64,000 bases of DNA from Mustelus asterias (Eukaryota). The translations under genes were made by a program, and so were the position numbers. Positions 905 to 58,650 of the stretch are shown piece after piece (position 1 is the stretch's first letter; each line of letters starts with the position of its first letter). The DNA lies in the NCBI RefSeq assembly GCF_964213995.1, contig NW_027590213.1, positions 496,001 to 560,000 on the forward strand, given 5' to 3'. Under the pieces are notes generated by a model. It searched no databases. It was given only the letters and a program-made list of their open reading frames with translations, and had not been told where the DNA came from.

Positions 905-1962
905 GGTTTTAGAAGGGGAGGATTTGCGGTCTGGTCTCAAACAAAACATCACATCAGGATCTGACGGAGTCACCCTTAATATCATAGCCTGAATATCACT
1001 GGACTTTGAACATGGAAGGAGAAAGCATTCGTCACAGTGGGGAGAAACCATACACGTGTTCTGTGTGTGGACGAGGCTTCAACCAATCATCTGATCTGTC
1101 AAAGCACGAATGCAGTCACAGCGGGGGGATGACTTGGAAATGTGAGGAATGTGCAGCAGTATTCAGCTCCTCAGCTGAGCTGGAAACTCACCAGTGTGCT
1201 CACACTGGGGAAAGACCAATCAGCTGCTCTGAGTGTGGGAAAGGATTCAGTCACTTATCCCAGCTAATGATACACCAGCGAGTTCACACTGGGGAGAGAC
1301 CATTCACCTGTTGAGTGTGGGAAGAAATTCACTCAGTCATCCAACTTACGGACACACCAGCGAGTTCACTCAGGGGAGAAACCATTTACCTGCTCCAGAT
1401 GTGGAAAGAAATTCCCTCATTTGTCTCATCTGCTGGCTCACCAGCAAGTTCACACTGACCAGAAACCTTTTAAATGTTCAGACTGCGGGAAATGTTTTAA
1501 AAGTTCCAGGGAACTGTTGTCCCATCAATGTGTTCACACTGATGAGAAACATTCAAGTGCTCTCACTGTGGGACTGGGTTCAGACATTCATCTCATCTCA
1601 CTGTACACCAGCGGGTTCACACTGGGGAGAGGCCGTTCACCTGCTCTGACTGTGGGAAGGGATTCACTCAGTTATCCAACCTGCTGACACACCAGCGAGG
1701 CCACACTGAAGAGAAACCGTTTACCTGTTCCCAATGTGGGAAGGGATTCACTCGATCATCTGACCTCCTGACACATCAGCTTGTTCACACTGGGGAGAGA
1801 CCGTTCACATGCTCCAAGTGTGGAAAGGGATTCACTACCTCATCGCACTTGCTGAGACACCAGCGAATTCACTCTGGCGAGAGGTGGTTCATCTGCTCCG
1901 AGTGTGGGAAGGGATTCACTCAGTCATCTGTCCTGCTGACCCACCAGCGAATTCATGAGTAA
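905..1962 (+). pseudogene. C2H2 zinc-finger array exon with frameshifts (about 10-11 finger positions)
   Basis: Polypyrimidine/CAG acceptor ending at 904, then leader and [16 protein letters not shown]. Fingers with TGE[RK]PF linkers are split over ORFs 1006-1314 and 1421-1687 and a third segment ending HQRIHE-TAA at 1960-1962. Confidence 0.85.
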
Positions 1963-2351
1963 CTACAATGATTAGATTTTGTGGTTAATCAAGTCAGGAA
2001 TGAACATTGCTGATCAGGGTCTATTTCTGCTGATGTTAATAAACTCCAGCCTACTTATAGATGTTAATATTCTAGATAAAAGTCAAATAAATCAGCTTTG
2101 TGTAAAATACCAATGTCTGAATCGTTTAACATCACAAACACAAGTTAGTTCCTTTTCAAAGGCTCCCTCAAGCTCGCTGCCCTCTCCAACACTCTCTCCT
2201 GGTTAAGGGTGATTGTTAAAATCTGCCTCTCCAATCAAGGTTTTGTCCATTTATCCGAATATTGTCCCATGTGACTCCGTGTCAGTTCTTTCTTTCTCAA
2301 ACTCCTCTGAAGCATAGTGGAATGTTTTGTTACATTAAACATGTTCTATAA

Positions 2352-2850
2352 AGACATAAGAACTAGGAGCAGGTGTAGGCCATCTGGCCCCTCGAGCCTG
2401 CTCCGCCATTCAATAAGATCATTGATCTTTTTGTGGACTCCGCTCCACTTACCCGCCCACTGACCATAACCCTTAATTCATTTACTGTTCAAACTTATCT
2501 ATCTGGCCTTAAAATCATTCAATGAGGTAGCCTCAACTGCTTCAGTTATTTTGAGGCCATGACCCCTAGTTCTAGTTTCACCTGCCAATGGAAACAACCT
2601 CCTTATTTCTATCTTATCCATTCCATTCATAATCTTATATGTTTCTATAAGATCTCCCCTCATTCTTCTGAATTCCAATGAGTATAGTCCTAGTCTACTT
2701 AGTCTTTCCCCATAAGCCAACCCTCTCAATTCCAGAATCAACCTCATGAATTTCCTCTGCACCCCCTCCAGTGTCAGGATATCCTTTCTCAAATAAGGAG
2801 ACCAAAACTGTACATAGTACTCCAGGTGTGGCCTCACCAACACCTTATAC
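2352..2850 (-). mobile_element. CR1-clade LINE 3' fragment
   Basis: ORF 2499-2897 contains VRPHLEYYVQFWSPY...LYSLEFRRMRGDLIETYKIM, typical of the CR1 ORF2 C-terminus, plus a CR1-like 3' tail near 2352. Confidence 0.85.
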
Positions 2851-3334
2851 ACGTTGTTACTGTTTCTCAAGTCAGTTTGTACACAGTAAGATTCCACGAA
2901 CAGCAGTCAGACCGATTAACCCATGGTGGTGTTATTTAAGACAGGAATGTTGATCCCGCTGCAGCAGGAGAACTCCCCTGTGGACAGTATGTGGAGTTGT
3001 TGAGCTCTCCTGAGCTGAGAGCTGATCGAGCTGTCAGGCCTGCAGTGGACCTTGAAGAACCGCTGTCTGGGATCTTTCCTCTCAATTCACTGATTCAAAT
3101 GTTTTTGGCCAACCAAATAAACTAACTTAAATTTCAATTCACTCACTCCCAGCTTAAGTTGTTCCTGATCAGTCACGTAATTAACTTTGAACATCAATCC
3201 CTATTTAACCTTTGGAGCAAAATCTACAAAATCAAAATCAGCTGTAAAAGAGAAAGAAAGTTCTTGTGTTCATTCAGAAACATTCACCCCCTCAGAGCAT
3301 CCCAGAGTGATTCACAGTGAATGATAGATTTTGG

Positions 3335-9218: not shown

Positions 9219-9699
9219 GGTGTTGGTGTCCTTGTGTCCCTCCGGGTTGGATGATCAGTTGAAGCCTCATTCACACACAGAACACGTGGACAATTTCTCG
9301 TCACTGTGAACTGTGTGATGTTTTTTCAGGCTGTGTAACTGGTTCAAGCTCTTTCCACAGTCAGTTCACTGGAACACTCTCTCTCGGGTGTGTGTGTGTC
9401 TCGGTGCTTTTCCAGTCACACTGATATTTCAAACCTTTTCCCACGGGCAGAACAGACAATCATTTCTCCTTCCACATTCGAAGACTGACGATATTCAAAT
9501 CCTGATTAATCGAGTGACTCTGTCGGCTCTTTACGTGATACTTGGTTTGAGTTTCTCGTCTGCAAATCCTCCCGTTCTAATTCTCTGCAAAAAGAGTTTA
9601 CAAAGTCATCACCGGAAGAACAGGAAATACTAGTTCCTATGGAACACTTTGATCTCTTGATCCCCAAAGTTGCAAATTCCTGTCCCACTCATGTCTTTA

Positions 9700-11274: not shown

Positions 11275-11790
11275 TTGCGCATGCACTTGAGTGCACATTG
11301 CCCCGCATAAAGATGGCAGCAGCGCATGCGCTTTGGTGCAGATCGCCTCTATAAAGATGGTGGCCGGTATCTGGGGTCTCTCCTGGAGAAAGATCGCCGC
11401 GCCGAGCAAACGCGGGACCGAAAGCTTATTGAGGGTTTAGTGAAGCCGAGGGCTTATGAAGCCTCTCCAACTTACCTGCTGGCTCTATTTATGTTTACGG
11501 ATTTAATTTTGACTCTGGATCCACACTCGCCCTTTGCAAAACTCGCATTTTAAAACCTCTCGCTCGAGCTCTTGCCTTCCGTCTCTACCGACTGCGCATG
11601 TGCCAACACACAATGATTGACACCGATTCCGGACCAATCGGAGGAGGCGATGCTGGAGGTTAGAGTGTGAGCGGCTGATGCTCCGACCAATCGGACTGAA
11701 TGAGGGGCGGGGTCGGGCTGAGAGTGAAACATGCGCAGTGTCGGTGCGGTATCGGGATGAAGGCGATCGGATTCTCAATGCACCGCTGGG
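11275..11790. promoter_or_regulatory. CpG-island bidirectional promoter between divergent ZNF genes
   Basis: CpG-rich; NRF1 GCGCATGCGC 11322-11331; YY1-like AAGATGGTGGCC 11354-11365; CCAAT boxes; GC box near 11704; minus-strand donor CAG|GTAAGT at 11476/11475. Confidence 0.7.
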
Positions 11791-11812: not shown

Positions 11813-12020
11813 CACTGAACTGGGATCTCAGCCCAGGGAGGAGAGAGAGTGTGTGGGACCGGCATCTGAACAGGGATCTCAGCCCAGGGAGGAGGGAGAG
11901 TGTGTGGGACCGACATCTGAACAGGGATCTCAGCCCAGGGAGGAGGGAGAGTGTGTGGGAGCGGCATCTAAACTGGGACCCCAGCCCAGGGAGGAGGGAA
12001 AGTGTGTGGGACCGACATTT
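11813..12020 (+). repeat. 51-bp minisatellite, 4 copies
   Basis: GGGATCTCAGCCCAGGGAGGAGGGAGAGTGTGTGGGACC.. starts at 11822, 11873, 11924 and 11975. Confidence 0.95.
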
Positions 12021-12301
12021 AAAAGAGAGGAAAAAATGTTCCAGAGAAACTGGAATTGTCTGTTCAGAATTTCTATCCTGGACTGACGATGATTAAATTT
12101 GTAAACTTTTGCAGAATATTGGAAGTGAGGATTTACAGCCAAAAGTTCAAACCAAACATCACGTCAAGATCAAACAGAATGGCTCAATTCATCAGGATCT
12201 GAATATCATCAGATTTTAAATGTGGAAGGAGAAATGTTTGTTCTGATTTGACTTGGGTAGAGATTTGAAGAATTCGTGTGACTGGAAAAGCACCGAGTCT
12301 G

Positions 12302-12517: not shown

Positions 12518-12934
12518 ATGGAGAAACCTCAGAAATGTGAGGACTGTGGGAAGGGATTCAATTACCCATCCCAGCTGGAAAAGCATCGACACAGTCACAC
12601 AGGAGAGAGACCATTCACCTGCTCCATGTGTGGGAAGGGATTTGCTGACTCATTCTGCCTCCAGTCACACTTGCAAGCTCACGCTGAGGTTAAGCTATTC
12701 TGCTGCACATCCTGTGGGAAAATGTTTAGGTATTCATCCAACCTCATTGTACATCAGCAAGTTCACACTAGGGAGAAACCATTTACCTGCACTGTGTGTA
12801 GGAGGGGATTCACTTGGTCATCCCACCTGCTGAGACACCATCGAGTTCACACTGGGGTGAGGCCTGTCACCTATTCTGTGTGTGGGAAGGGATTCATTCT
12901 GCCCAAGACCACAAGGAACTACAAAAGGTCGTGA
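12518..12934 (+). CDS. Short C2H2 ZNF ORF (4 fingers), truncated by a Rex1-like insertion; possibly a pseudogene
   Basis: MEKPQKC... four fingers; the fifth is cut at about 12897 and the ORF ends in LINE-derived LPKTTRNYKRS. Confidence 0.6.
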   Translation: MEKPQKCEDCGKGFNYPSQLEKHRHSHTGERPFTCSMCGKGFADSFCLQSHLQAHAEVKLFCCTSCGKMFRYSSNLIVHQQVHTREKPFTCTVCRRGFTWSSHLLRHHRVHTGVRPVTYSVCGKGFILPKTTRNYKRS

Positions 12935-15220: not shown

Positions 15221-15589
15221 CATTAAACTTGCCCAGCAGGGCCTCTCGTATCAGCAGACAGGCAGCTGCTTTGTAAGACAGCTACAAGTAGAGACAAAGT
15301 CAGAGATAAGAGTGTCCTGAGAAGAGAGATTCATTGTGAAGGCTCAAGGATGGTTGATGGATGTAGCAATTCTCATTCCCCAAAAGCTGTGAATCCCTAT
15401 CCCACACACTCTCCCTCCATTCTCACTCTGCTGTATCTAATATTCACCCTCCCAATTCTCCTGAAGATGCTGATTCAAGCTGAATGACAGATCCATGTCC
15501 TGGACACAGAGAGCTGGAAATCTCCATGCAGGCGGCCAGACAGATATATGTCTATCTGACTGGACTAACAATGTGTGGAATGTACAGAC

Positions 15590-16020
15590 TGGGGGAACAA
15601 TGGGTGGGGGCGGGGCTCCCGGGTCCGCGCGCCTGAACCCGGAGACGTCACCGCGGAGCAGAGTGAATCTATTGGCTGATTCAGGCAGGGCTCCATTGTG
15701 CGGTCACAATGACTCAGAGGGGCGTTCCCAGCACACAGTGTCCCATTGGCAGCAATATCACTGGTTACAGAAGCAGCACACTGCGGATTGGACACCAGCT
15801 CAGCGCGGCTGGCGGTCAAAGCCCCGCCCAAACCCACGTGGGCTCGGGTTCCGCCCCCACATTGTCTACATGCGGCAGATTGACCAATGGCAACCCGTGG
15901 AGGACCGGATGGGCGCTGGTCCTCCAGCCAATCAAAGTCCGGGACTTGTATGCAGCTTCCTCCATTCCGGCCCAGCTAAACTGCTCCTCTCTGAATGAAG
16001 ATTGAGCTTCAGACAGATTA
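15590..16020. promoter_or_regulatory. CpG-island promoter upstream of the 16.9-kb ZNF gene
   Basis: GC boxes, CRE-like GACGTCA, several CCAAT/ATTGG; modules homologous to 53700-53845 (inverted) and 54020-54186 (direct). Confidence 0.7.
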
Positions 16021-16947
16021 ATATTGTACTGTAGCGACCTTAGATATTTCCAGTCATTCGTCTCTTGCCTATTAGAGTCATTAGTGTTTGGATTTCTTTT
16101 CCACAGGGATGAGTGGAGGGTGAGAGTCATTGAATATATTCCAGGGTGAGTTAAACTGATTTTTGATTGATAAAGGCGTCAAGCGTTATGGGGAACAGGG
16201 AGAAAAAGGGAGAGAAAGTTAAGATAAGGAGGGATTTCCTCACTCAAGTATGTGCGTAGTTTTGGAATTATGCACCCCACGCTGAGGTAGATCGGCCAAT
16301 TCTCAATCAATGATTGAGGCAGTTCGATGGGCTGAATGGCCAACTGCAGCTCCTGTTTCTTATAATTTCTATGTGCTGGAGAGGAAGCAGTGAGCATGGA
16401 TCTGTCAATCAGCCTCAATCAGCACCTTCAGGAGAATTGGGAGGGTGAATACTAGATACAGCAGAGTGAGAATGGAGGGAGAGTGTGTGGGATGGAGATT
16501 TACAACTTTTGGGAAATGAGGGAGGAAATAATGTTCTATAGAAACTGGAATTGTGTCTTCTGAATTTCTATCCTGTTCCGACAGTGATGGCTTTAATAAA
16601 CTCATTTTACAGGATATTGAAAGAGGAATCGCATTCCGAAATCTCAAACGTCACGTCTAGATCTGACAGAGTCATATTCCTTGGGAGCTGAATATCATCA
16701 GCCTTTGAATCGAGAAGGAGAAATGATTTGAAAAGATTTCAAACATCAGTGTGACTGGAAAAGCACCAACACACTGCCACACTTGAGTGAGAGTGTTCCA
16801 GCGCACGGACTAAAGAGCTTTAACCAGTTACACAGCCTGAATAAATATCACATCATTCACAGCAGGGAGAGACTGTACTCGTGTTCTGTGTGTGGATGAG
16901 GCTTCAACTAATTGTCCACCCAAGAGAGAGGCAAGGACACCTGCACC

Positions 16948-17790
16948 ATGGAGAAACCATGGAAATGTGCGGACTGTGGGAAGAGATACAGAACCCCATC
17001 CCAGCTGGAAGCTCATCGGCGCAGCCACACTGGGGAGCGGCCATTCATCTGCTCTCACTGTAGAGAGGGATTCACTCGGTTATCCATCCTGAAGCAACAC
17101 CAGCGAGTTCACACTGGGGAGAGGCCGTTCACTTGCTCTAAGTGTGGGGAGGGATTCACTCAGGCATCCGCTCTGTGGAGACACAAGCAGGTTCACACTG
17201 GAGAGAAACCATTCACCTGCTCTCAGTGTGAGAAGGGATTCACTCGGTTATCCCAGCTGCAGACACACCAGCGAGTTCACACTGGGGAGAGGCCATTCAT
17301 CTGCTCTCAGTGTGGGGAGGGATTCACTGACTTATCCAGCCTACGGTCACACCAGAGAGTTCACACTGGGGAGAGGCCATTCACCTGCTCTCAGTGTGGG
17401 AAGGGATTCACTCAGTCATCCACCCTGCAGAAGCACCAGCGAGTTCACACTGGGGAGAAACCGTTCACCTGCTCTCAATGTGGGAAGGGATTCAGTCAGT
17501 CATCCAATCTGCAGATACACCAGCGGGTTCACACTGGGGGGAAACCGTTCACCTGCTCTCAGTGTGGGAAGGGATTCACTCTGTCATCCACCCTGCGGAG
17601 ACACCAGCGAGTTCACACTGGGGAGAGGCCATTCACCTGCTCTCAGTGTGGAAGGGGATTCACTCAGTCATCCAATCTGCAGACACACCAGCGAGTTCAC
17701 ACTGGGGAGAGACCGTTCACCTGCTCTCAGTGTGGGAAGGGTTTCAGAGTTTCATCCCAGCTGCTGAGACACCAACAGGTTCACGAGTGA
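16948..17790 (+). CDS. KRAB-less C2H2 zinc-finger protein, 10 fingers, intact ORF
   Basis: CACCATGG start; 280 aa = 10 x 28-aa fingers; acceptor at 16611-16612. Confidence 0.88.
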
Positions 17791-20700
17791 TTCCAGGGGT
17801 TGGATTCTGCTGTTATTGTTTCTGCTCTCAATTACATCCAGGACTGCATTTTGTTCATTCTCACAGTTGGTCAATGGGGAGGGTCGGGGGGTTTCTTTCT
17901 GCTGGACTGGCCGGTCTCACGACTTTGCCTCCAGTGGGCTGATGCTCTTTGAGTCTTGTTGTGAATATCTGGTTTCAGATTTCACAAGGATCACAGAGTG
18001 ACCGGGTGTGAGGAAGTTCAGAGATATTTAGTCAGCATTTCTGTTTGAAACTTCCCAAATCCCGTCCAATTTCCTTTGTAATTATTTATTGTCTCCACTT
18101 CCTCCACCCTCGTAGGCAGCGTGTTCCAGGTCATTACCATCCGCTGCACCAAAATATTCTTCCTCACAACCCTTGCATTTTTCACTATTGAATAACTGCG
18201 TAAGCTGTCTGTATCTGTGACTTGGAGCTGAGAGTTGTATTAGAATGTCTCTGTGATTACTGTATTAGAGAGCTTTGTCAGGGCTGTGACTTTGAGCTGT
18301 GAGAGCTGTATCACAGGAGGGTGCTCCTCCAGAGCTTTCTCTGGGGTTGTTCCCTCCAGGCGTGAATCATGAATAAACTATTGTAACATGTCCCTGGGTC
18401 TCCTGTGGTTAGTTGGAAGAAATACATCACAACAGGACAATAAGGGAATTGGAATAACTCACCTTGGGTGTGGTTGAGTGGAATATATCAATCTGGTATC
18501 CACCTACATTCTAGTGAAAGTCAGGAATGTGTAGATGGGATGAATAAGTTGATCACTTTCTCTGGGAGATATTTACATCCTTGTCCATGAACTTTGTTTT
18601 AAAGAAATCCACATTTGAAAGCCCGGCCACTCCATGAAACATCAGCACCATAACAAGGGGAGATAAGAAAGACAGGCACTCATTTTGAACTTTTCATCAA
18701 TACATCTGAGAGTTAAGAATGTGTGACATGATTTTGGGATACCGGAGTGAGTGCACAGATGTGATTTGTTACATGTGAAAAATAACAAGCCTAAATTCAT
18801 GGTGAGATGGAGTGAAGAGCGGGTCCCAAACACACACAGCTACTTGAGACACTGCAGGAGATGAAATGGTTAATGTGGCCAGGGGATTGTGACATCATTG
18901 TGACATCATCAAGGCATTGACACACACTCCAGAGAGAAACTGAGTTCAAAACAATCAGGGTCCAATTAAACACACTGCACATGCTCACAAAGTGAGTGAA
19001 ATTACAGTAAAATGGATCATATTATAGATTGGGACAATTGAGGTCTTGGGAGAAATAATACGGAGTAAGAACTGTCCACAGTTGGACAGGGGTAAGGAGA
19101 GAGCTGGAGAATCTTTTACATCCATGCTTGATCTGTTGATTGAAGGACCTGTCCTAACGTACAAGTAACCGAGAACTCACGGTGTTCCTTCAGGAGAAAA
19201 GTTTGATTAGATGTTACCCCAGGTGGGACCAGAATAGAACTCGAAAATAACGGAGTGAAATTGAGTGAGGGGTCAGAGAGAAAGTTCTCCTCCCCCTCAA
19301 GATGTGGACTGAAATAATCCTGGGGGACCCCCTACTTTGGGTTTTCTTGCTAATTAGTGAATATGATATTCGATTCTATAACTGGCTGTGCATTTATTTT
19401 GAATTTGATTGTTACACTTCTCCTGTTTTTATTCCTGTTGTGATTACGCTCTGGGTAAGGATGGTTGACAGGTGACAGGATGGGAAATTGTGGTTTGGGT
19501 CATTGACCAAATGTTTTATTGATCTGAAAGGTGTAAAAGGGGCCAAACTTCAGCAGAAATGCAGCAGAGCTGAGAACAGACAACTTGCTGTGTGGGAGCA
19601 GGGAGATAAACAGCTCCCAGAGGACAGAGAAACCAGGAGGGCCTTGAATCCTAGATGACCTGTGTGTCAAGGCCACCATGTTTTCACTGCTTGGCACGGG
19701 AATGCTGACTCCCTGTACCAGGGACGGAGCGTGGGAAGACAATTGTTTGAGAGTTTGATGTGGCTTGTGGGGGGGTACAGATGGTTCAGTGACAGGTTTT
19801 GTTATGTTAGCTGGGCAATGACTGGGTTAAGAAGGGATTCCCCGAGCACAGAGATTTGTCGAGGTTTTACATATTGCATTGACTGGTGCCATGGCATCTG
19901 GGGCAGAGCAGGGAGCATTTCCGTGGAGATGCTGCTTCTACCCAGAGTGTAATGGTAATGCTGCTGCACTTTGATACGACTGCTCAGACATTAGCCTGTG
20001 TCAGCTCTTATTGATACTGAATAAAATCTAACCACTGTCACCAATAAGGGTTATCACTGGGAATCATTTCAGAGTTTGGGAAAAGGGGAGAAAGGGTTAA
20101 TTGACTCCCTGAACCCCATTTTCTAACATCGCTGAGTCAAAAATAAAATCTCATCTCCCCCTCTGGCTCCTTTGCCAATTACCTTTAGAGGGACTCACTT
20201 TCTGTTAAAGAACCTACCAACCCCTCTCACCCTCTTTCCCTAAAGTTCATCAATCTCATCAGGAAAAGTCCAGAACAATCAAATATTTTTACTGATAAAA
20301 GTTTATTAATGAAACAGAACATGGTTAAAACAAACAGAAAATGACTTGAGGATCAAAGACAACCAGAGTAAAAGGATGTTCACAATGTTCTGGACACAAC
20401 TGGATTCTCTTCAGCTCCTCTGTCCCCTGTTCCTGTGACTCCCCGCTTTGGACACAGGGACACTGAACCCCGGGGGTCACGTCACCATCAGCCCTGGTCA
20501 CCTCCTCCGGTGCCCTGATTGGTTGGAGGCCCATTTCCCAGTCAGACCTCCAGCACCTTCCTGTCTCTCTGTTAGTGTGACGCCCATGGGGGGGCGATGC
20601 CCAACTGGGGCGCAGGCCTCGTTATTCTCAGCTAAATTCAGCCCTCAGCTCCGTCACCTGGCTGTCATTGACACGAGCAACAGAGACAGAAAGGAGCCCC

Positions 20701-21264
20701 GGGCTCAAATGGGAAGTCAAAACTTGTGTCTCTGAACCAACACTTCAACATTTGTCAGTCAAATCCATGTTATTTACACCGGGAGTTTTTATGATGAGAT
20801 TAATTGAAGTGTTCGGCTAGTCAGCAAGCTCGAGAAGCACTGATTCCAGATTGTTCAATACTTCTACCTTGAATCGCAAAAGCTTCTCACTTTATTCCCT
20901 TCCTGAACTGAGTTCCATCATCCTGAGCAGCTGTGGGTGTCGCCTCTCTGTGTAAACTCCTGCCCCTTTTTATAAGGCTCTCTCATTCCTTATTGTGGGT
21001 CAATTCTTTAATGGTTGAGGATCGCTCTGTGATGCAGTGAGTGTTTATCCGGTCAATCAATGTTTCTGATGTCAGTCGGAACGTCCATCGTTACTTTTCA
21101 TCTGTTTCTTACTCTGTGTTTTATAAAAATAAAGTTTATAAAATTTTACAGAATGGTCAGCTTTAAGGTTTCTGAAGTTCATGATGAGGTCATCCAAAGG
21201 TCAAATCCTCTCTTTTCTCCTTCCTGTTTAACTAAGGGGTTGTGTGGAATATTCCATTCAGGGG

Positions 21265-21645
21265 GAGGTGGTGGGAATGTCACTGGCCGAGTAATGCAGA
21301 GACCCAGCAAAGGATCTGGGGACAGGCAGCTGGTGGGATTTGAATTCAGTGAATCAATCTGGAATTATATAAAGTTAGTCTCAGAAACGGTGACCATGAA
21401 ACTATCGACTGTTGTAAAAACCTGTCCAGTTCACCCTATTAATGCTCCCTATCAGGGAGGGAAATCTGCCATCCTTACCCGGTCTGGCCTACATGTGAAT
21501 CCAGACCCACACAGCAATGTGGGTGACTCTTAACTGTCCCTCTGAAATGGCTGAGCAAGTCACTCCATTCAAGGGGAAATTAGGAGCTGAGCAACGTGTG
21601 CTGGGGCTTTGCCAGCAGTGTCCACATCCCAGGAAAGAATAAAGA
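21265..21645 (+). mobile_element. tRNA-derived SINE (family with GGTCTGGCCTACATGTGACTCCAG core), degenerate
   Basis: Similar to 26517-26908; mirrored at about 60550-60940. Confidence 0.65.
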
Positions 21646-23460: not shown

Positions 23461-23796
23461 TTTGTGATCTCCATTTAGAAAAAGGAAATAGAGGCACTGG
23501 AGAAGGGGCAAGAAAGATTCACAAGAATAATCCCAGAACTGTAATCACTTGTGAACTCACTGGTGTTTCACCAAGTTTGCTGACTGAGTGAATCCCTTCC
23601 CAGTCAGAGCAGGTGACCAGCCTCTGCCTGGTGTGAACTCACTGGTGGGACACGAGTCCCCGAGAGCTTTTGAAGCCACGCCCACATTTAAAGGGTCTCT
23701 CCTGGGTGTGATGATGTTGTGTCTGGGCAGGCTGGATAACCGAGTAAATCCTTTCGCACACACCGAGCAGGTGAATGGTTTCTCCCCGGTGTGAAC

Positions 23797-25215: not shown

Positions 25216-26516
25216 GGTGTGGGTGTCCTTGTGACTCTCCAGGTTAAACAATCAGTTAAATCTGACACAGAACACGGGTACAGTCTCTCCGCGCTGTGAA
25301 TGCTGCGATGTATTTTCAGGCTATGTAACTGGTTAAAGCTCTTTCCACACTCAGTGCACTGGAACACTCTCACTCGGGTGTGTGTATCTCAGTGCATTTC
25401 TAGTCACAGCGATGTTTACAATCTTTTGAAGCCAAGAGGCCAAACAAACATTTCTCCTGCTAGATTCAAAGGCCGATGATATTCAGGTCCCAAGAAATCG
25501 AGTCACTCTGTCAGATCTCGATGTGATGTTGGAGATTTCTGTCTGATTTCTCCTTGTCTAATATCCTGTAAGTCAATTTAGAAAAAAAAATATCGCAATT
25601 CAGAATATGATCGAAATTCAAATCTACATTTCTAGTTTCTATGGAGCATTCATTAAAGACACAGTCATGGAGCATTAAACTTGCCCAGCAGGGTGTGTAT
25701 CAGCACACAGGCAGCTGCTTTGTGAGACTGCCGGCAGTACAGACAAGTCAGAGATAAGGGTGTCCTCAGAAATGGGATTCATTGTGAAAGCTCAGGGACG
25801 GTTGATAAGATGCAGCAATTCTATGATTCTAATGAACATTCTTTCCTCTCTCATTCCCCAAAAGCCGTAAATCTCCATCCCACACACTCTCCCTCCATTC
25901 TCACTCTGCTGTATCTAATATTCACCCTCCCAATTCTCCTGAAGGTGCTGATTGAGGCTGATTGACAGATCCATGTTCACTGCTTCCTGTCCAGCACAGA
26001 AATCAGAACAAATAGGAGCTGCAGTCAGCATTCGGCCCATCGAGTCTGCTCAACCATTCATTGAGATTATTGGTTGATCTACCTCTGCATTATTTTCCCC
26101 ACACTGTCCCCCATATCCATCGATATCTTCAATATCTAGAAACCTATCAATCCCTCTCTTGAAAATTCTTGATGACTGAGGCTCTATAGTCCTCTGGGGT
26201 AGAGAATCCAAAACATCACCACATCCTTGAGTGAAGAAATCCTTCCTCATCTGAGCTTTCTCTCCATTTTCCAGCCTGTTCCCAATAATTATTGACTCCC
26301 TTATCATTCAAAAACTGTCTAACTCATCCTTGAATATATTCAATCCCTCCACTGGTCCCTATGGAAGAGAAATCTAGATACTAACAATTCTCTGAGGGAA
26401 GAGATTGTTGGAAATATATAATATAGCTGCAGTCCAAAATTACACAGCCAGATATAATAAGTGTATTTTATTACAGAGCTTTTAATAATATATCTAATCT
26501 GTACCATATAACAACA

Positions 26517-32865: not shown

Positions 32866-33734
32866 GGTGTGGGTGTCCTTGTGACTCTCCAGGTTAAACA
32901 AGCAGTTAAATCTCACACAGAACACAGGTACAGTCTCTCCCACTGTGAATGCTGCGATGTATTTTCAGGCAATGTAACTGGTTAAAGCTCTTTCCACACT
33001 CAGTGCACTGGAACACTCTCACTCAGCTGTGAATGTGTCTCGGTGCTTTTCAAGTCACACAAATGATTAAAGTTTTTGAAGCACAGAACAGAGAAACATT
33101 TCTCCTTTGAGAAACAAAGGTCGAAATATTCAGGTCCCGATGAATTGAGTGAGGATGTCAGATGTTGATGTGACGTTTGGTTTGAAATTTGTCTGTAAAT
33201 CCTCCCCTTCAAATATCCTGTAAAAAGAATTTACAAAAGTGATCAGTGTCAGCACAGGATAGAAATTCAGGACAATTCTAGTTTCTCTGGAACATTCTTT
33301 CCTCTCTCATTCCCCAAAAGCTGTGAATCTCCATCCCACACACTCTCCCTCCATTCTCACTCTGCTGTATCTAATATTCACCCTCCCAATTCTCCTGAAG
33401 GTGCTGATTGAGGCTGATTGACAGATCCATAGAACACAGAACATAGAACATTACAGCGCAGTACAGGCCCTTCGGCCCTCGAACAAAGAACAATACAGCA
33501 CAGGAACAGGCCCTTCGGCCCTTTATTCCCCGTGATGAATTCTCCCATTTCTAACATTTTGTCAATCATTTTCTCTTTATATATCTATAGAAACTTTTAC
33601 AGTCAGTTTTTATGTTCCTGCCAGCTTACTTTCATACTCCATGTTTCCCTGGGAGTGGGTGAAGCTGTTGAAAACCTGTTGCTCAGTTTGCGATGCTTTC
33701 CGGTCACGAGGACCCGGTTGGGAGCAGAAAACGC

Positions 33735-34155
33735 TGAAGCCCCGCCCACTCACTGTTGCGTCACCAAGACACCAGCGCATGCGCTCTGCTCCCTGCTGAA
33801 TCAAGATGGCGGCTGTTAACCTGAGTCTCATCTCGAGAAAAAGACCTGAAGCTGCAAACACGGGACTTGCGGATTACTATTAGAGGTTTGAGACCTTCAC
33901 CAGATATTTAGAAACCCTCTCCGTCCATCTGCCGGTTCCAATCCTCCCTCCATGTCTCCGCATCCTTACCGGTTGCTGATGAGACAGAGGAACGTCTCTC
34001 CCCATTGCCATCATCCACGCTGCACATGCGCCAAACACGGCCTGACTGCGCATGTGCACCTCTCTCCCGTGCTGTGGATAGGGAACATTCCCCACCGCGA
34101 GGAATGTTGGGTAAAGCGCACGCCATCGAAATTCCTCATTTAGGAACGGTGAGCT
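33735..34155. promoter_or_regulatory. CpG-island bidirectional promoter cassette, paralogue of 29835-30215
   Basis: NRF1 33775-33784; YY1 33803-33813; NRF1-like 34021-34058; ZNF143-like 34101-34114; minus donor CCG|GTAAGG at 33969; plus donor CG|GTGAGC at 34149. Confidence 0.72.
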
Positions 34156-35593: not shown

Positions 35594-37051
35594 AATGCAG
35601 GAGGATACAGGTTACCTCAGGATTACAAGTTGTTTTGAGACTTGAGATTGAAAACGACATTTGGAGGTGAATTTTCCTGCATCCTTTGAGTTGGTGAAGG
35701 TTGTGGTTTGGCAGGTTCTGTCAGTTCTTGTCCAGTTGTAGATGTATAAAGTCCTTACCGTTCATTCCCTCCCTGTTTCATCTCTATCTTTCTCCTCCCA
35801 TTGAGGCTGAATTCTTGTGTCGATCTGGATGGGTGACAGGTTTCCTGCATTGAAGGACATTAACAAACCATTTGGGTTTTTAATCACAATCCAGCAGCTT
35901 CCGGAGTCACTTCTTCCTTGTGCCGGCTCCACAAATGAGCAGATTCATTCAGCTCAATTTCACAACCTGCCTTTGTGTTTATCACTGTTTTTTCCTCTTT
36001 AAATTGCAGCCTCGAGAAATCCGTGAGCCATGTACATATTCAGTGTGAGAGGTTGCAGCCCCTGAAGGAGCTGCTTCTCCACTTTTAGTTATACTTCTGT
36101 TCTGCCCCACGCTCCTGTTCGTTGGCTGCCCAGTGTGGAGGAGACTGGGGAGGTCAGAGGATCTTTTCCTGGACCTGTTCTTGGGGCTGGTTAAAACAGT
36201 AATTTGTAGTTCAGCAGAGGGTAACTTGGCTGTGGGCCCCTCTTCTGTGGTTTCACAGTAACTTCATTACAGTGTTACTGTCAGCCTTCCCTGTGACTAA
36301 TAAAAATAAACTTTAACTTTCTTGTCCGTGCTCGTGTGGTCCTGGAGAGGGAGCAGACAGTGTCGACTGGAACACTCGATATCTTCCACAACTCAGGGGA
36401 CAGAGTGTCTCACAAACACTGGAAACAAAGTTCTGGTTTAGTTCAGATGGAAGTTCGATTGGTTCACAAGATTTGGGGAAACAAGATTTGAAATAATATT
36501 CCGTGGAAACTAGAATTGTTTGTTGTGAATTTCTGTCCTGTGCTGGCAGCGATACTGACTCTGTCAATGTCTTTTACAAGGTCCACGAGGACGATGAATT
36601 GCAGATGGGAAACTGAAACCAAACATTACATCAAGATCTGACAGAGTCACTCAATTCATCAGAAACTGAATATCATCGACCTTTAAATGTGGAAGGAGAA
36701 ATGTTTGTCTGTTCTGGCGGTGGGGAACAATTTCAAACATGAGTGTGACTGGAAAAGCACCGAGACACAGACCTGAGTGAGAGTGAACTGACTGGAAAGA
36801 GCTTTGACCAGTTACACAGCCTGAAAAAAACATCACACCATTCACAGCAGAGAACAATAAGACCATGAGAACTAGGATCAGAATTAGGCCATTGGACTCA
36901 TCGAGTCTGCTCCTCCATTCAATGAGATCACGGCTGATATGATATGACAATCAAATTTTCTGCCTTGTCCCATAACCCTTAATAGCCTTACTTCGAAGCA
37001 ATACACATGTTGTGTGTGGACAAGGCTTGACCAGACAAGAACACCCGCACC

Positions 37052-41254: not shown

Positions 41255-41305
41255 GCATCCCTCACTTTCAGCCCCACTACTCAGGATCCCTCCCCCCCCC
41301 CCGAA

Positions 41306-42235
41306 TCAGTTTAAACCTCCCTGCATGGCCTTAGCAAATTTACCCCCCAGGATATTGGTCCCCTTCTGATTAAGGTGTAGACCATCCTTCTCATAGAGGT
41401 CACACCTTCCCCAGTACGAGCCCCAATTGCTTAAGTACCTGAACCCCTCCCTCCTGCACCATCCCCTCAGCCATGAATTCAAACCTTCCCTCTCCCTATT
41501 CCTCTCTAAACTATCCCGTGGTACAGGCAAGAGTCCAGAGATAACCACTCTGTCAGTCTTGGCCTTTAGTTTCCACCCCAACTCCATAAATCCCTGCCTA
41601 ATATCCCCTTCCCCTATCCTCCCTATGTCGTGTGTCCCCACATGTACAATAACTTGTGGTTTATCTCCCTCCCCCCTAAGAGTCCTGAATACCCTGTCAG
41701 ACACATCCCGGACCCCAGCCCCTGGTAGGCAACACACCAACCCTGAGTCCCTACCTTTAGTTCCGACCCTCCTATCTGTCCCCTTAATTGTGGAGTCCCC
41801 AATCACAAGGCCCAGTCTTTTACAGCCCCTAACCACCTGAGCTTTCTCACTCGGCTCACCCCCAGAGATCTGCTCTCTATGCTCAGTTGATTCCTCCTCA
41901 ACTGTAGCCTCCAGCACCGAAAACCTATTATGGAGGGGAACCGCCCCAGGGGATTGTCTTCCCGCTTGCTTCTTACCCCTCCTCCTGGCATTGACCCAAG
42001 CCTCATTTCTAGGAGTTACTATTTCTCTATAACTCCTATCAACTTCCACCTCCGCCTCCCGAATTATGCGGAGTTCCTCTACCTCCCCCTCCAGCTCCTT
42101 TACACGCTCCTCCAGAAGCTGCAATCTAATGCACTTCTTACAACTAAAATCTCCTGAAACACTACTGGATTTCCTCACCACATACATCCCACAGGAGATG
42201 CAGCATACTGCCTGAACTGCCATCCCTGAAGCCAT
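41306..42235 (-). CDS. CR1 ORF1: N-terminal Cys motif/coiled coil + SGNH esterase-like domain
   Basis: MASGMAVQAVCCISCGM..CKKC, LLEERVKELEGEVEELR, VIGDS, HVGTHD, DGLHLN; start position approximate. Confidence 0.9.
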   Translation of the reverse strand: MASGMAVQAVCCISCGMYVVRKSSSVSGDFSCKKCIRLQLLEERVKELEGEVEELRIIREAEVEVDRSYREIVTPRNEAWVNARRRGKKQAGRQSPGAVPLHNRFSVLEATVEEESTEHREQISGGEPSEKAQVVRGCKRLGLVIGDSTIKGTDRRVGTKGRDSGLVCCLPGAGVRDVSDRVFRTLRGEGDKPQVIVHVGTHDIGRIGEGDIRQGFMELGWKLKAKTDRVVISGLLPVPRDSLERNREREGLNSWLRGWCRREGFRYLSNWGSYWGRCDLYEKDGLHLNQKGTNILGGKFAKAMQGGLN

Positions 42236-42731
42236 TACCAGCAAGAAAAAAAAGAAAACAAAAAACTTCCCCACACTTATAATTAGGTTAGAGGAGGATG
42301 GAAGGGCGGGATCCTCTACCAGTGTAGAGGATCGGGTATCTCCTCTGCACCAATTTATAGGGCTAGGGGCCCGAGAGAAAAAAAAAAAAACTACTACTGA
42401 GGGGGAACCACCCAGGTAACTGACTTTTAAAGTTAAAATAAAAACCCTTCCCAGACTCCTTTGCTGCCCACTTCTAGTTTTCACTTTAAACTTGAAAAAC
42501 TGCTGTTAAAGTAAAGGCCAAAAAAATACACACACTAGCTGACTAATTAAATAAATAAACAATTCAATTAATCCAATTAATCTCTTACCAGCACTGCTGC
42601 TTTTCAATCACCCCTCTCAGCTTGCTCCAGTGGATCAATGAGCTCCTGGGCAAGTCCCAGCTCCCCATACTTTCCAGAGCATCTTTCCTGGCATCGGAAT
42701 CCAGGGAAGGTATCAGTAACACATCCGCGAT

Positions 42732-48616: not shown

Positions 48617-49486
48617 TCATCTGTGAACTCGCTGGTGTTTCACCAGATTGGATGATTCGGTAAATCTCTTCCCACACTCGGAGCAGGTGAACGGCCTCTC
48701 CCCAGTGTGAATGCGCTGGTGTGTCAGCAGGTGGGATGATCGTGCAAATCCCTTTCCACACTCGGAGCAGGTGAACGGCCTCACCTCAGTGTGAATTTGT
48801 TGGTGAGTCAGCAGGTTGGAGGACTGACTGAATCCCTTCCCACACTCAGAGCAGATGAATGGCTTCTCCCCAGTGTGAACTCGCTGATGTACAGTGAGAT
48901 GAGATGATCGCCTGAACCCAGTCCCACAGTGAAAGCACTTGAACGGTCTCTCCTCAGTGTGAACTCGCTGATGGGACATCAGTTCACCAGAGCTTTTAAA
49001 GCACTTCCCACACTCTGGACATTTAAAAGGTCTCTTGTCAGTGTGAACTCGTTGGTGTGTCTGAAGGTGGGTTGCTGTCCTGAAACTCTTCCCACACTGT
49101 GAGCAGCTGAACAGTGTGTACTCGGTGTGAATGCGCTGGTGCTCCCTCAGTCCGTGTGGGCTTTTAAAGCTCTTCTCACAATTGGAGCATTGAAACTCTC
49201 TCTTGTCAGTGTGAACTTGCTGGTGTTTCAGCAGGTGGGATGAGCGAGTGAATCCGTTTCCACACACCGAGCAGGTGAACGGCCTCTCCCCGGTGTGGAG
49301 TCGCTCATGCAGCTGAAGGCAGATGAACTGAGCGAATCGCTTTCCACATACGGAACAAATGAACGGCCTCTCGCCGGTGTGTCTGCGTCGATGGATTTCC
49401 AGCTCAGATGGGGATCTGAATCCCTTCCCACAGTCCACACATTTCCACGGTTTCTCCCTGGTGTGAACGGTGCTTTTTGCTTCCAT
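48617..49486 (-). CDS. C2H2 zinc-finger protein, 10 fingers, intact; frame open back to the acceptor at 49590
   Basis: 322-codon ORF; first ATG at 49486 (AACATGG); the leader SNQTSHQNLTESLDSSGLEYHRPLN is in frame. Confidence 0.88.
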   Translation of the reverse strand: MEAKSTVHTREKPWKCVDCGKGFRSPSELEIHRRRHTGERPFICSVCGKRFAQFICLQLHERLHTGERPFTCSVCGNGFTRSSHLLKHQQVHTDKREFQCSNCEKSFKSPHGLREHQRIHTEYTLFSCSQCGKSFRTATHLQTHQRVHTDKRPFKCPECGKCFKSSGELMSHQRVHTEERPFKCFHCGTGFRRSSHLTVHQRVHTGEKPFICSECGKGFSQSSNLLTHQQIHTEVRPFTCSECGKGFARSSHLLTHQRIHTGERPFTCSECGKRFTESSNLVKHQRVHR

Positions 49487-50049
49487 GTTCAAAGGCCGAT
49501 GATATTCAAGTCCTGATGAATCGAGTGACTCTGTCAGATTTTGATGTGATGTTTGGTTTGACTTTCCTGATCGTGAACATTTCAAATATTCTGTAAAATG
49601 AATTTAAGACAGAATCAAGGAAATATAAAAGAGAACCCACAAAAACACAAAGGTAGGTTGTGAAATTGAGCTAAATTCATCTTGTAATTTGTGGGGCCTA
49701 TGCTAGGAAAAAGTGACCCTGAAAACTGCTGGTTTCTCATAAAAACCCAACTGGTTCACTAATGTTCTTTAGGGAAGGGAACCTGCCAACCAGTCGGGGC
49801 TTACACAAGGCTCTGGCTTCTATGGGAGGAGAGAGAGATGTGAAGGAGGGTAAAAAAGATGAACTTCATAGATCCGTAATTGAATTAGAATTTTGAAAGA
49901 ATCTCCCAAACCCATAACTCCACCCACTGGAAAGACAAGAGCAGCCGGCGCCTGGGAAAACCATCACCTCCAAGACACACACCAGCGAGTTCAGACTGGG
50001 GAGAGACCAGACTCCTGCTCCACATGTGAGAAAGATAGAATCGATCATC

Positions 50050-50962
<913 letters not shown>

Positions 50963-52995: not shown

Positions 52996-53048
52996 ATGTG
53001 ACGTGGAGCTCAAGGGAATGGAACTGACCAAATTGCTCCACAGAGAGT

Positions 53049-53220: not shown

Positions 53221-53659
53221 CCACGGAGAGTTAGCATGGATTTAAGTTGCCAAATGCATTTCCTTCTATGTTGTAATCTCTGCATCACTGGAAATTGACA
53301 AAGCAGCCACACTGCTGTATATTTCAAGACAAAAAATATGGGACCATAAATAACATATCTCTCTCCCATACAAATTTACAGTTCATTTAAATGTTAGCCC
53401 TCTTCTGGGAAAACTGAATTGTGAACATTGGGTAAGAGGTTACCCTATTAGCCAGATAAACTGAGGGAACTAAAAGATGTCAATGTCTTTGAGAGAGAAA
53501 CAAAAATATACCTGGGCCTAGTCCTGTTCCTGAATCCGGTCTTCATCTGTAACCTTTCCAGAGTCTGCAGCCTCCCTGGATTCACTTCCTTTCCCTTCAG
53601 TTGCTGCAAGTCCCCAATTTCCCCCAGAATGAGAAAAGAAATGGAAAGGGGGAAACATT

Positions 53660-54230
53660 GATTTCCTCCCAGATGTTGCCCAGAGGAGGGAGTTTGGACA
53701 ACTTCCGCATTGTGACGTCCATAATAGAGCTCTGCCTAAATCAGCCAATAGGAATCATTCTGCTCCGCGATGACGTCTCCGGGTTCCAGTGCTCAGGCCC
53801 GGGCGCGCGGACCCGGGAGCCCCGCCCCCACCCATTGTTCCCCCTCCCCCTTCACCTCTTCCAGCCACGGTTTCCAATCAACCGGCTGACGGCTCCGGCC
53901 AGAGCGAGAAGCCGCGTAGTGATCGCCCCCTCCCTCGGCCCGGGACTGCGCATGTCCAAGGGAGAGGGGAAGATGCGCATGTGCGGGGGAGCCAACCATT
54001 TGACCTGTATGCTGAGGTGTTGGCCAATGGAAAGTTGGAGGACCGGAAGTTCTCTGGTCCTCCAGCCAATCAGAGCTCCCCCATTGTCTGAATGCGGAAG
54101 TGGACAATGAGCTTGTTCGGCTGTTCATTCCTGCCCAGCAAAGCTGCTGCTGCTCTCACTCTGAATGAAGATTGAGCTTCAGACAGACTCAAACTTCCTT
54201 CTGTCTTCAACATCTGTGAGTAAAACACTT
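53660..54230. promoter_or_regulatory. CpG-island bidirectional promoter flanked by long inverted arms
   Basis: TGACGTC x2, several CCAAT, GC box, NRF1-like TGCGCATGT x2, ETS CCGGAAGT/GCGGAAGT; plus donor CT|GTGAGT at 54216. Confidence 0.75.
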
Positions 54231-56523
54231 TCTTTTCTCTCCCTTTCCAGTTCTTTTCTCATTCTGGGGGAAATTGGGGACTTGCAGCAACTGAAGGGAA
54301 ACGGAGTGAATCCAGGGAGGCTGCAGACTCTGGAAAGGTTGGCCCAGGTTTCTCTTTCTCTTAAAGACATTGACATCCTTTGCTCCCTCAGCTTGACTCA
54401 TTGATTTGTCTGGCTAAAAGGTCCCTTTCCTAATGTTCACAATTAAAGAGCTGGTTTCCCCAGGTGATGGCTGGCATTTAAAAGGACAATAAATTAATAT
54501 AGGACAGAGATATGCCTTGTGTTGTTATATTGTAGATTTGGTATAATATTTATGGTTCTGTAACAAAGTACGTTTATTATTAATTCTCGTTTTATAATGT
54601 AGCACTGAAGCTATGTTATATATTTTCACTCATTGAGTCATTACGGCGCAGAAGGAGTCCATTCAGTAACTCGAATCCATGCCGACTCTCTGTAGAACAA
54701 TCCAGTCAGTCCCATTCCCTTTCTATATTCCCTTTCCCCTGCAACTTTATTTCCTTCATGTGCCCATCTAATTTCTGAAATATATTAAAGGGGACAGTAA
54801 ACTAATATCGGACAGAGACGTGTCTGATGTTTTTTTTATTCATCCTTGGGACACGGGCATTGCCGGCTGGGCCAGCATTTATTGCCCATCCCTAATTGCC
54901 CTTGAACTGAATGGCTCGCTCGGCCATTTCAGAAGCTGTTTGAGAGTCAACCACATTGCTGTGGCTCTGGAGTCACATGTAGGCCAGACTGGGTAAGGAT
55001 GGCAGATTTCCTTCCCTAAAGCACATTAATGAACCAGATGGGTTTTTTGGTCAATCGACAATGGTTTCATGGTCATCAGTAGATTCTTAATTCTAGATTT
55101 TGTATTTAAATTCAAATTCCACCATCTGCTGTGGCAGGATTCAAACCCGGGTCCCCAGAACATCAGCTATGTTTCTGGATTAATAGTCTGGTGATTAATA
55201 CCACAAGGCTATCAGCTCCCCTGTTGTTATATGGTACAGATTAGATATATTATTTATAGCTCTGTAATAAAATACACTTATTATATCTGGCTGTGTAATT
55301 TTGGACTGCAGCTATATTATATATTTCCAACAATCTCTTCCCTCAGAGAATTGTTAGTGTCTAGATTTCTCTTCCATAGGGACCAGTGGAGGGATTGAAT
55401 ATATTCAAGGATGAGTTGGACAGTTTTTGAATGACAAGGGAGTCAATAATTATTGGGAACAGGCTGAAAAATGGAGAGAAAGCTCAGATGAGGAAGGATT
55501 TCTTCACTCAAGGACGTGGTGATGTTTTGGATTCTCTACCCCAGAGGACTACAGAGCCTCAGTCATCAAGAATTTTCAAGAGAGGGATTGATAGGTTTCT
55601 GGATATTGAAGATATCGATGGATATGGGGGACAGTGTGGGGAAAATAATGCAGAGGTTGATCAACCAATAATCTGAATGAATGGTTGAGCAGACTCGATG
55701 GGCCGAATGCTGACTGCAGCTCCTATTTGTTCTGATTTCTGTGCTGGACAGGAAGCAGTGAGCATGGATCTGTCAATCAGCCTCAATCAGCACCTTCAGG
55801 AGAATTGGGAGGGTGAATATTAGATACAGCAGAGTGAGAATGGAGGGAGAGTGTGTGGGATGGAGATTTACAGCTTTTGGGGAATGGGAGAGGAAAGAAC
55901 ATTCATTAGAATCATAGAATTCCTACATCTTATCAACCGTCCCTGAGCTTTCACAATGAATCCCACTTCTGAGGACACCCTTATCTCTGACTTGTCTGTA
56001 CTGCTGGCAGTCTCACAAAGCAGCTGCCTGTGTGCTGATACGGGAGGCCCTGCTCGGCAAGTTTAATGCTCCATGACTGTGTCTTTAATGAATGCTCCAT
56101 AGAAACTAGAAATGTCAATTTGAATTTTGATCGTATTCTGAATTGTGATGTTTTTTTTCTAAATTGACTCACAGGATATTAGACAAGGAGAAATCAGACA
56201 GAAATCTCCAACATCACATCTAGATCTGACAGATTGACTCGATTTCTTGGGACCTGAATATCATTGGCCTTTGAACCTGGCAGGAGAATTGTTCGTCTGG
56301 CCTCTTGGCTTCAAAAGATTGTAAACATCGCTGTTACTAGAAATGCACTGAGATACACACACCCGAGTGAGAGTGTTCCAGTGCACTGAGTGTGGAAAGA
56401 GCTTTAACCAGTTACACAGCCTGAAAATACATTGCAGCATTCATAGCGGGAGAGACTGTACCCGTGTTCTGTGTGAGATTTAACTGATTGTTTAACCTGG
56501 AGAGTCACAAGGACACCCGCATC

Positions 56524-57261
56524 ATGGAGAAACCGTGGAAATGTGGGGACTGTGGGAAGAGATACAGAATCCCATCTGAGCTGGAAATTCATCAACGCAG
56601 TCACACTGGGGAGAGACCATTCATCTGCTCTGTCTGTGGGAAGGGATTCAGTCAGTTATCCTACCTGCTGAAGCACAAAGTCACTCACACCCAGGAGAGA
56701 CCCTTTAAATGCTCTGACTGTGGGAGTGGTTTCAAAAGCTCTCAGTATCTGGTGTCCCACCAGCGAATTCACACTGAGGACAGACCGTTCACCTGCTCTC
56801 ATTGCACAAAGAGGTTTAGAACATCATTCAACCTGCGGAGACACCAGCGAGTTCACACTGGGGAGAGACCGTTCACCTGCTCGGTGTGTGGGAAGGGATT
56901 CACTCATTCATCCCACCTCAGCAGACACAATCTCACTCACACCAATGAGAGACCCTTTAAATGCTCTGACTGTGGGAGTGGTTTCAAAAGCTCTGGAGAA
57001 CTGGTGTCCCACCAGCGCATTCACACTGAGGACAGACCGTTCAGCTGCTCTCACTGCTCAAAGAGGTTTAGAACATCATACAACCTGCAGACACACCAGC
57101 GAGTTCACACTGGGGAGAGACCGTTCACCTGCTCTCAGTGTGGGAAGGGATTCACTCAATTATCTAGTCTGCTGAAACACAATCTCACTCACACCCAGGA
57201 GAGACCCTTTAAATGTGGGCGTGGCTTCAAAAGTTCTCGGGAACTCATGTCCCACCAGTGA
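56524..57261 (+). CDS. C2H2 zinc-finger protein, 8 complete fingers, paralogue of the 23.8-25.2-kb gene
   Basis: ATCATGG MEKPWKC start; 3-finger repeat; ends at CAG-TGA; acceptor 56173-56174. Confidence 0.8.
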   Translation: MEKPWKCGDCGKRYRIPSELEIHQRSHTGERPFICSVCGKGFSQLSYLLKHKVTHTQERPFKCSDCGSGFKSSQYLVSHQRIHTEDRPFTCSHCTKRFRTSFNLRRHQRVHTGERPFTCSVCGKGFTHSSHLSRHNLTHTNERPFKCSDCGSGFKSSGELVSHQRIHTEDRPFSCSHCSKRFRTSYNLQTHQRVHTGERPFTCSQCGKGFTQLSSLLKHNLTHTQERPFKCGRGFKSSRELMSHQ

Positions 57262-57874
57262 GTTCACACCAGGCAGAGGCTGGTCACCTGCTCTGACTGG
57301 GAAAGGATTCACTCAGTCAGCAAACTTGGTGAAACACCAGTGAGTTCACAAGTGATTACAGTTCTGGGAGTATTCTTTGAATCTTTCTTGCCCCATCTCC
57401 AGTGTCTCTGTTTCCTTTTTCTCAATGGAGATCACAAATAGAACGTAGAACAGCACAGCACAGGAACAGACCCTTCAGCCCACCATGTTGTGTCGAACAT
57501 GATGCCAAATTAAACTCTTCCTTTCTGCCTGCCCTTGGTCCATATTCCTCTATTCCTTGCATATTCATGTGCTTATTTAAAACCCCCTTAAATGCTCCTA
57601 TTGTATCTGCCTCCACCACCACTCCGAGCAGCGTGTTCCAGACACCTACCACTCTCTATGTAAAAAAACTTGCCCGGATTAAAATCCATCTGCCATTTCT
57701 CCGCTCATATCTGCAGCTGAACTACATCCCACTGTATCCTTTGACAACCTTCTACACTATCTACAACTCCAACTAGCTTTGTGTTGTCTGCAAGCTTGCT
57801 AACCCACCCATCCACATTTTAATCCAAGTCATTTATATGTATCCCAAAGAGCAGAGGTCCCAGTACTTCATGCA

Positions 57875-58650
57875 ACCTGCAGATACACCAGCGAGTTCAC
57901 ACTGGGGAGAGGCCGTTCACCTACTCTGTGTGTGGGAAGAGATTCACTCAATTATCCAGCCTGCTGAAACACAAAGTCACTCACACCAATGAGAGACCCT
58001 TTAAATGCTCTGACTGTGGGAGCGGATTCAAAAGCTCTCAGGGACTGGTGTCCCACCAGCGCATTCACACTGAGGAGAGACCGTTCAGCTGCTCTCACTG
58101 CTCAAAGAGGTTTAAAACGTCATCCAACCTGCAGGAACACCAGCGAGTTCACACTGGGGAGAGACCGTTCACCTGCTCTGTGTGTGGGAAGGGATTCACT
58201 CAGTCATCCAGCATGCTGAGACACAAAGCCACTCACTCCAAGGAGAGCCCCTTTAAATGCTCTGCCTGAGAGGCCGGCTTCAGAAGCTCTCAGGAACTGA
58301 TGATCCCCGAGCACATTCACACCGGGGAGAGGCCGTTCAGCTGCTCTCACTGTTCAAGGAGGTTTAGAATATCACCAACACTGCTGAAACACCAGTGAGT
58401 TCACACCGGGGAGAAACCATTCACCTGCTTGGTGTGTGCGAAAGGATTTACTCAGTTATCCAGCCTGCCGAGACACAACATCATCACACCCAGGAGAGAC
58501 CCTTTAAATGTGGGCGTGGCTTCAAAAGCTCTCGGGAACTAATGTCCCACCAGTGAGTTCACACCAGGCAGAGGCTGGTCACCTGCTCTGACTGGGAAGG
58601 GATTCACTCAGTCAGCAAACTTGGTGAAACACCATTGAGTTCACAAGTGA
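57875..58650 (+). pseudogene. Second, 5'-truncated copy of the ZNF array 3' end
   Basis: Re-enters mid-finger after CR1 pieces; ORF 57928-58269 then stops; tail 58490-58960 repeats 57195-57665. Confidence 0.85.

Follow-up and report, generated by a model that had tools for sequence, protein, structure and literature searches.

Does the sequence block shared by the members of a shark zinc-finger (ZNF) gene cluster encode an N-terminal effector, a counterpart of KRAB, ZAD or FiNZ, or has it another origin? The question is raised by a stretch of 64,000 nucleotides (nt) from Mustelus asterias (NCBI RefSeq assembly GCF_964213995.1, contig NW_027590213.1, positions 496,001 to 560,000), hereafter the window, in whose coordinates positions are given. 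Ten ZNF exons, five per strand, start here with the same block, the leader, directly after an AG splice acceptor (904, 12114, 16612, 36580 and 56174 on the plus strand; 9585, 25566, 33218, 49591 and 50963 on the minus strand). An initial annotation of the window had proposed that the leader might be such an effector or else a 5' untranslated region (5'UTR) or splicing element. Because the block evolves like non-coding DNA, the most likely reading is that of an untranslated relic, not of a new silencing domain. Very probably the block is the 5' remnant of an ancestral coding spacer, in genes that would make bare finger arrays from an ATG within the finger exon. It forms the first 105-120 bases of a ZNF exon that duplication has spread over thousands of shark genes.

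The leader exons of the window

All ten exons were found in place at the acceptors listed in the initial annotation. With the leader at 49591 as a BLASTN query, the other window copies were matched in nine cases out of nine (E values of 4e-11 to 6e-53), and a DNA profile of the leader recovers the same ten copies. The three leader peptides quoted in the annotation agree with the sequence as written, and it was right that a single window copy (48617-49590) has an open frame from the block into the fingers. This copy carries a small deletion close to its 5' end, and its first residues are read in a frame other than that of the family consensus. An open reading frame (ORF) of 3-15 fingers starts at an in-exon ATG in nine of the ten copies, the one at 50963 being broken, and two or three decayed fingers separate the block from the intact array in seven.

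Two classes of exon can be told apart. Class B, which accounts for these seven copies, keeps the fossil fingers and has a Kozak-type ATG at the glycine position of a finger linker, giving MEKPWKC. In class A two fossil fingers are missing and the start is where the leader ends (MEG or MEA, as in MEGK/MEAK). The majority consensus has one frame running from the acceptor through the leader and three degenerate fingers into the intact array, except that the degenerate fingers contain two TGA codons; it is because this frame still runs through that the leader looks like a peptide.

Reading frames and substitution patterns of the leader

Frames were followed in 72 full-length leaders, 66 of which have an array; 11 of the 72, assignable to neither class, do not enter the class counts below. 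The sequence is open from acceptor to fingers in 4 of the 66 arrays, in two different frames. None of 27 further arrays on large contigs, picked by the MEKPWK pattern and hence biased toward class B, is open from the acceptor. Copies more than 93% identical were collapsed before dN/dS (omega, the ratio of non-synonymous to synonymous substitution rates) was estimated, leaving 38 of 45 in class B and 13 of 16 in class A. Frameshifts affect 31 of the 38 class-B leaders; freedom from both frameshift and stop was seen in two of these and in none of the 13 class-A leaders. The MEK start codon is present in 36 of the 38 class-B copies. Of the distinct indels in the leader, 7 of 34 (class B) and 0 of 12 (class A) have a length divisible by three. 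Under a codon model, omega of the leader was 0.76 in class B and 0.95 in class A, against 0.49 and 0.47 for the finger ORF; fossil fingers gave 0.83-1.01 and short intron controls 0.54-2.17. The likelihood-ratio statistic against omega=1 was 4.7 (class B) and 0.1 (class A) for the leader, and 68.8 and 39.2 for the finger ORF. Read-through of TGA, or its decoding as selenocysteine, was ruled out for the leader exon because the frames also shift. A leader dN/dS near 1 with a random frame, the result that the initial annotation had held to be fatal to its own effector proposal, is what was found, and a function like that of KRAB, ZAD or FiNZ is not borne out.

Two subfamilies with open leaders were analyzed separately. 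The one that includes the 49591 copy is young, and its close paralogs (L001-L024) are open in 24 of 24 cases. Compared with distant paralogs, the 49591 leader shows 1 synonymous to 8-11 non-synonymous differences in four comparisons out of four; past the ATG, the synonymous to non-synonymous counts are 8:11 and 9:10 in the two paralogs that stay in register. The other subfamily (L231-L290) was found via protein hit P0026. Here a first exon of the P2 type (see below; MAAVNL...), the leader and the fingers can share a frame. Its leaders are open in 25 of 30 copies with an omega of 1.17, and the first exon retains ATG motif, phase and open frame together in 12 of 30. The common frame is probably a holdover from the ancestral gene structure that is no longer under selection. 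In both tested open subfamilies, the leader is without purifying selection.

A HMMER search with the leader produced 34 protein hits. Of ten leader-containing proteins looked up, eight carry names, all of them sharks. The 30 hits that were fetched have unrelated, heterogeneous N-termini, several of which are translated intron. None of eight leader peptides matched a Pfam family; a search of the ESM Atlas was uninformative (best score, 0.77).

The conservation of the leader does not go beyond paralogy, leader and adjacent intron matching their consensus equally well (0.84 per column each). Nor is any special conservation of the leader as non-coding sequence detectable; of the annotation's second proposal, the 5'UTR assignment is supported, and a special conservation as UTR or splicing element is not. 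Folding of the short intron gave z scores of -0.16 to -0.52 in four cases out of four, and Rfam had no match in the window.

Promoters, first exons and start codons

Two promoter types recur upstream of leader exons. P1 has what we take to be CCAAT boxes and a CCGGAAG motif, and its exon ends in ACATCT before GTGAGT; P2, presumably NRF1/YY1-like, consists of GCGCATGCGC followed by AAGATGGCGG. One contig from each of runs X1 and X6 (two of four runs; depth 3 and 9) joins the end of exon 1 to base 16613. In these contigs, which represent paralogs from two relative species in runs presumed, as a guess, to be RNA, a P1 exon 1 ending in 28-33 letters like those at 54188-54215 is followed by the base that comes directly after the acceptor. 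In these two molecules, and in no others, the joint fits a short exon 1 spliced to the leader without an intervening domain exon.

In the proposed mechanism, a short exon 1 behind either promoter would be spliced to the acceptor. Ribosomes would scan the leader and, in class B, the fossil fingers with their short upstream ORFs, to initiate at ACC-ATG-G, where a TGEKP linker would have its glycine. In class A, initiation would take place at AAC-ATG-G. The predicted proteins would be DNA binders to which no effector is fused, and the family is, as judged from sequence, apparently effector-less.

In several paralogs an unrelated, repeat-like insertion sits immediately ahead of the ACATCT exon end, and a GG replaces the GT donor in one arm of a mirrored P1 promoter as well as in several paralogs. 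Opposite the P2 motif, donor-like sites on the minus strand (11478, 30060 and 33969) suggest overlapping head-to-head first exons.

A near-invariant block in the intron

The most conserved piece of the family lies outside the exon. A 118-nt intronic block, about 110 nt upstream of the acceptor, shows 98% identity across 19 paralogs chosen by a 12-mer of the block itself, whereas their exons average 79%; identity is 98.4% among the 60 most distant pairs. Diverged copies (73-78%) account for 4 of 36 BLAST hits, and a 34-mer of the block has 1,208 exact copies in the genome. A second near-invariant block lies at the 5' end of intron 1 (23 hits, 22 of them at 94-100%). It is possible that near-invariance reflects selection on a shared control element or gene conversion. 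A mini coding exon within the 118-nt block seems improbable: no such joint occurs among the 15 of 67 joints inspected, and conservation continues past the candidate donor.

On its opposite strand the 118-nt block contains an exact TGATTGACAG, the TALE DECA motif. This candidate TALE site resembles the DECA elements described in two reports (10.1101/720102, 10.64898/2026.02.16.706105); the shark block is devoid of the canonical 11-bp DECA-CCAAT spacing. One DECA motif cannot explain 118 nearly invariant bases.

Size of the family and selection on the fingers

In 934 kb sampled from the 3.68-Gb genome, window included, the profile finds 97 leader copies, of which 78 are accompanied on their own strand by at least 3 fingers no more than 1.5 kb away. 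Conversely, a leader lies no more than 1.2 kb upstream of 71 of the 81 arrays of at least 3 fingers. Exact matches genome-wide number 2,293 for the MEKPWK start site and 713 for a leader 22-mer, with none for the reversed controls. The KRAB profile (PF01352) had no match among 76 genome candidates, though the control likewise matched nowhere. The annotation's view of a very large, shark-type tandem ZNF family built on one duplicating exon cassette is supported, with no KRAB match seen within the limits of that control. The supplement to PMC10547256 gives ZNF ORF counts of 3,586 for Scyliorhinus canicula, 1,851 for Carcharodon carcharias and 1,223 for Amblyraja radiata; that paper tabulates elasmobranch counts, with sharks absent from its main text as available. 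The portion of PMC8455134 that was accessible mentions, on cartilaginous fishes, only the loss of KRAB-box families. Titles and the beginnings of abstracts disclosed nothing on elasmobranch ZNF gene structure, most subscription papers being outside the coverage of the search.

Outside the contact sites, the finger ORFs are under purifying selection in three of four subfamilies (omega 0.33-0.51). At the contact sites (40-56 pooled codons, no site models) omega was 0.07, 0.90, 0.72 and 0.72. It exceeds that of other sites in two subfamilies and rises above 1 in none of the four, so that transposon control is unsupported here. The value of 0.07 belongs to the 49591 family with its 10 fingers (48617-49486, L001-L024) and suggests, at the sequence level, a fixed DNA target.

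Coordinates of the elements described, in the window unless a contig is named.
Feature	Position	Strand	Remarks
Leader, class A	905..1011	+	ATG at end, 1012; ORF 1012-1314, 3 fingers; array broken beyond
Leader, class B	9464..9584	-	Then fossil fingers to 9219; ORF 9218-8460, 9 fingers
Leader, class B	12115..12233	+	ORF 12518-12934, 4 fingers
Leader, class B	16613..16722	+	ORF 16948-17790, 10 fingers; exon-1 sequence joined to base 16613 in relatives' contigs
Leader, class B	25452..25565 (end approximate)	-	ORF 25215-23797, 15 fingers
Leader, class B	33100..33217	-	ORF 32865-32215, 7 fingers
Leader, class B	36581..36700	+	ORF 37052-37540, 4 fingers; further fingers past a stop
Leader, class A	49487..49590	-	Open into fingers, without purifying selection; ORF from ATG 49486 to 48617, 10 fingers
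Leader of broken copy, without finger ORF	50855..50962 (end approximate)	-	
Leader, class B	56175..56288 (end approximate)	+	ORF 56524-57261, 8 fingers; more fingers near 58.0-58.4 kb
Fossil-finger part of class-B 5'UTR, example	16723..16947	+	Decayed C2H2 fingers with stops, frameshifts and short upstream ORF
118-nt block	16383..16500	+	Near-invariant; TGATTGACAG on opposite strand
118-nt block copy	25870..25987	-	
118-nt block copy, 5'-truncated	33326..33430	-	
118-nt block copy	55751..55868	+	
Displaced, more diverged block copy (94%)	15392..15497	-	No leader close behind
Second near-invariant block	53581-53670 and 54238-54310		Both arms of mirrored P1 promoter
P1 promoter and candidate exon 1	54000..54215	+	GTGAGT donor, intron from 54216; exon end resembles letters joined to acceptor
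Mirror P1 arm	53581..53860	-	GG rather than GT as donor, near 53670; includes the second near-invariant intron block (about 73-90 nt)
P1 promoter/exon 1	15880..16017	+	Donor end replaced by other sequence
P2 promoter	33775..33910	+	Other P2 near 11322-11460 and 29861-30000
Second open subfamily, example	L102:6200-6420, L102:8640-8860		

Three further features of the window were observed. An inverted duplication of about 5.8 kb (18533-24333 and 57862-63712; 93.5% identity) includes the 3' fingers of the genes at 25566 and 56174. Two long minus-strand ORFs of 956 and 399 amino acids (38435-42505) resemble what we take to be ORF2 and ORF1 of a CR1-type long interspersed element. About four 51-nt tandem repeats (11815-12018) derive from the purine-rich part of the intron preceding the 12114 acceptor.

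Discussion

Frames and dN/dS already largely refute the notion of a leader translated into an effector module equivalent in sharks to KRAB, ZAD or FiNZ, which we regard as very improbable. Its appeal lies in the consensus, which is in register with the fingers and has an acidic start, and in the annotated shark proteins that contain the leader; in one of them, P0026, a single frame spans exon 1, leader and fingers, but this protein is near-identical to genome paralogs and so not independent. Against this stand the few open copies, the frequent frameshifts, an omega of 0.76-1.17 and the want of a common upstream coding exon among the hits. Even less credible is a transposable-element fragment caught at the exon front: the high copy number of the 22-mer could be expected of one, but most profile hits are tied to finger arrays on the same strand, the consensus is in frame with the fingers, and the window has no Rfam match (no transposable-element library was searched).

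The leader could also be untranslated and yet selected as RNA or DNA, whether to enhance splicing, to provide an upstream-ORF platform or to form a structure tuning ZNF output. This we consider doubtful, if less so than the other alternatives. The block is recognizable across shark genera, and an upstream ATG in the first fossil finger is retained in 24-25 of 38 class-B copies, with a TGA 15 codons on in 37 of 38. A sawshark protein record (P0002) ends at the same FQTSV position as this upstream ORF, so the truncation appears old. However, that TGA sits in the fossil fingers, outside the block as annotated; upstream ORFs in class B vary in length between 2 and 42 codons; a putative stem in the fossil fingers was rejected, with no compensatory change in 7 correctly registered pairs; and conservation of the leader does not exceed that of the intron beside it. 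A largely functionless family, most of it amplified passively as a segmental repeat, is unlikely. Many arrays are truncated (6 fingers or fewer in 12 of 29 and 16 of 30 copies of two subfamilies), and the ORF omega of one subfamily is 0.71-0.84; but the ORFs of the other three are under purifying selection, which is strongest at the 49591-family contacts, and the intronic block is near-invariant.

Several observations weigh against an untranslated relic. The class-B leader omega is nominally below 1, although short non-coding controls scatter on both sides of it. Since the consensus frame is open, and so are most leaders of one subfamily, some proteins may carry the leader peptide as an extension. 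Indels of the coding region are mostly non-multiples of three as well (multiples: 4 of 10 in class B, 5 of 15 in class A), because the sample holds pseudogenes. The support for splicing consists of one low-depth contig per run, from paralogs of other species in runs presumed to be RNA, and the proposed in-exon starts are read from sequence rather than from ribosome profiling.

In tetrapods, KRAB-ZNF genes form birth-and-death clusters with head-to-head pairs, and have a short first exon and a single finger exon with a spacer before it. The shark family shares these traits of cluster and gene layout, including a tandem C2H2 array within one exon; it differs in that no KRAB was matched, the spacer has decayed and the ORF has its start within the finger exon. 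The insect ZAD is a folded coding domain. ZAD-ZNF genes are, like the shark genes, a lineage-specific expansion, but nothing comparable to the folded domain was found in the shark family: the leader peptides match no Pfam family, zf-AD included, PF07776 not having been searched genome-wide. FiNZ, according to the accessible text of Wells et al. (2023, PMC10547256), is a conserved 28-amino-acid coding domain in its own upstream exon in cyprinids; the fingers of FiNZ-ZNF genes are under positive selection, and there is knockdown evidence for repression of transposable elements. As far as that text goes, the two systems agree in that clustered tandem C2H2 genes devoid of KRAB have expanded within one lineage, with the fingers in one exon, whereas the shared block of the shark genes is non-coding and lies inside the finger exon, and contact-site omega does not exceed 1. 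A translated N-terminal domain in a separate exon, as in FiNZ, was not found. The shark family resembles the KRAB and FiNZ systems in size and clustering and lacks the translated N-terminal domain by which they are defined.

With the shared block discounted as a domain, a false lead is gone, and annotated N-termini that contain the leader are likely artefacts. It seems conceivable, as a speculation, that sharks survey transposons with thousands of effector-less arrays that have discarded their N-terminus and restart at a linker, switched on jointly through the 118-base element with its TALE site and silencing through the fingers or a partner in trans. The 118-nt block offers a handle for family-wide experiments, and the question is sharpened to whether a vertebrate ZNF expansion can persist, and perhaps control transposons, without a fused effector.

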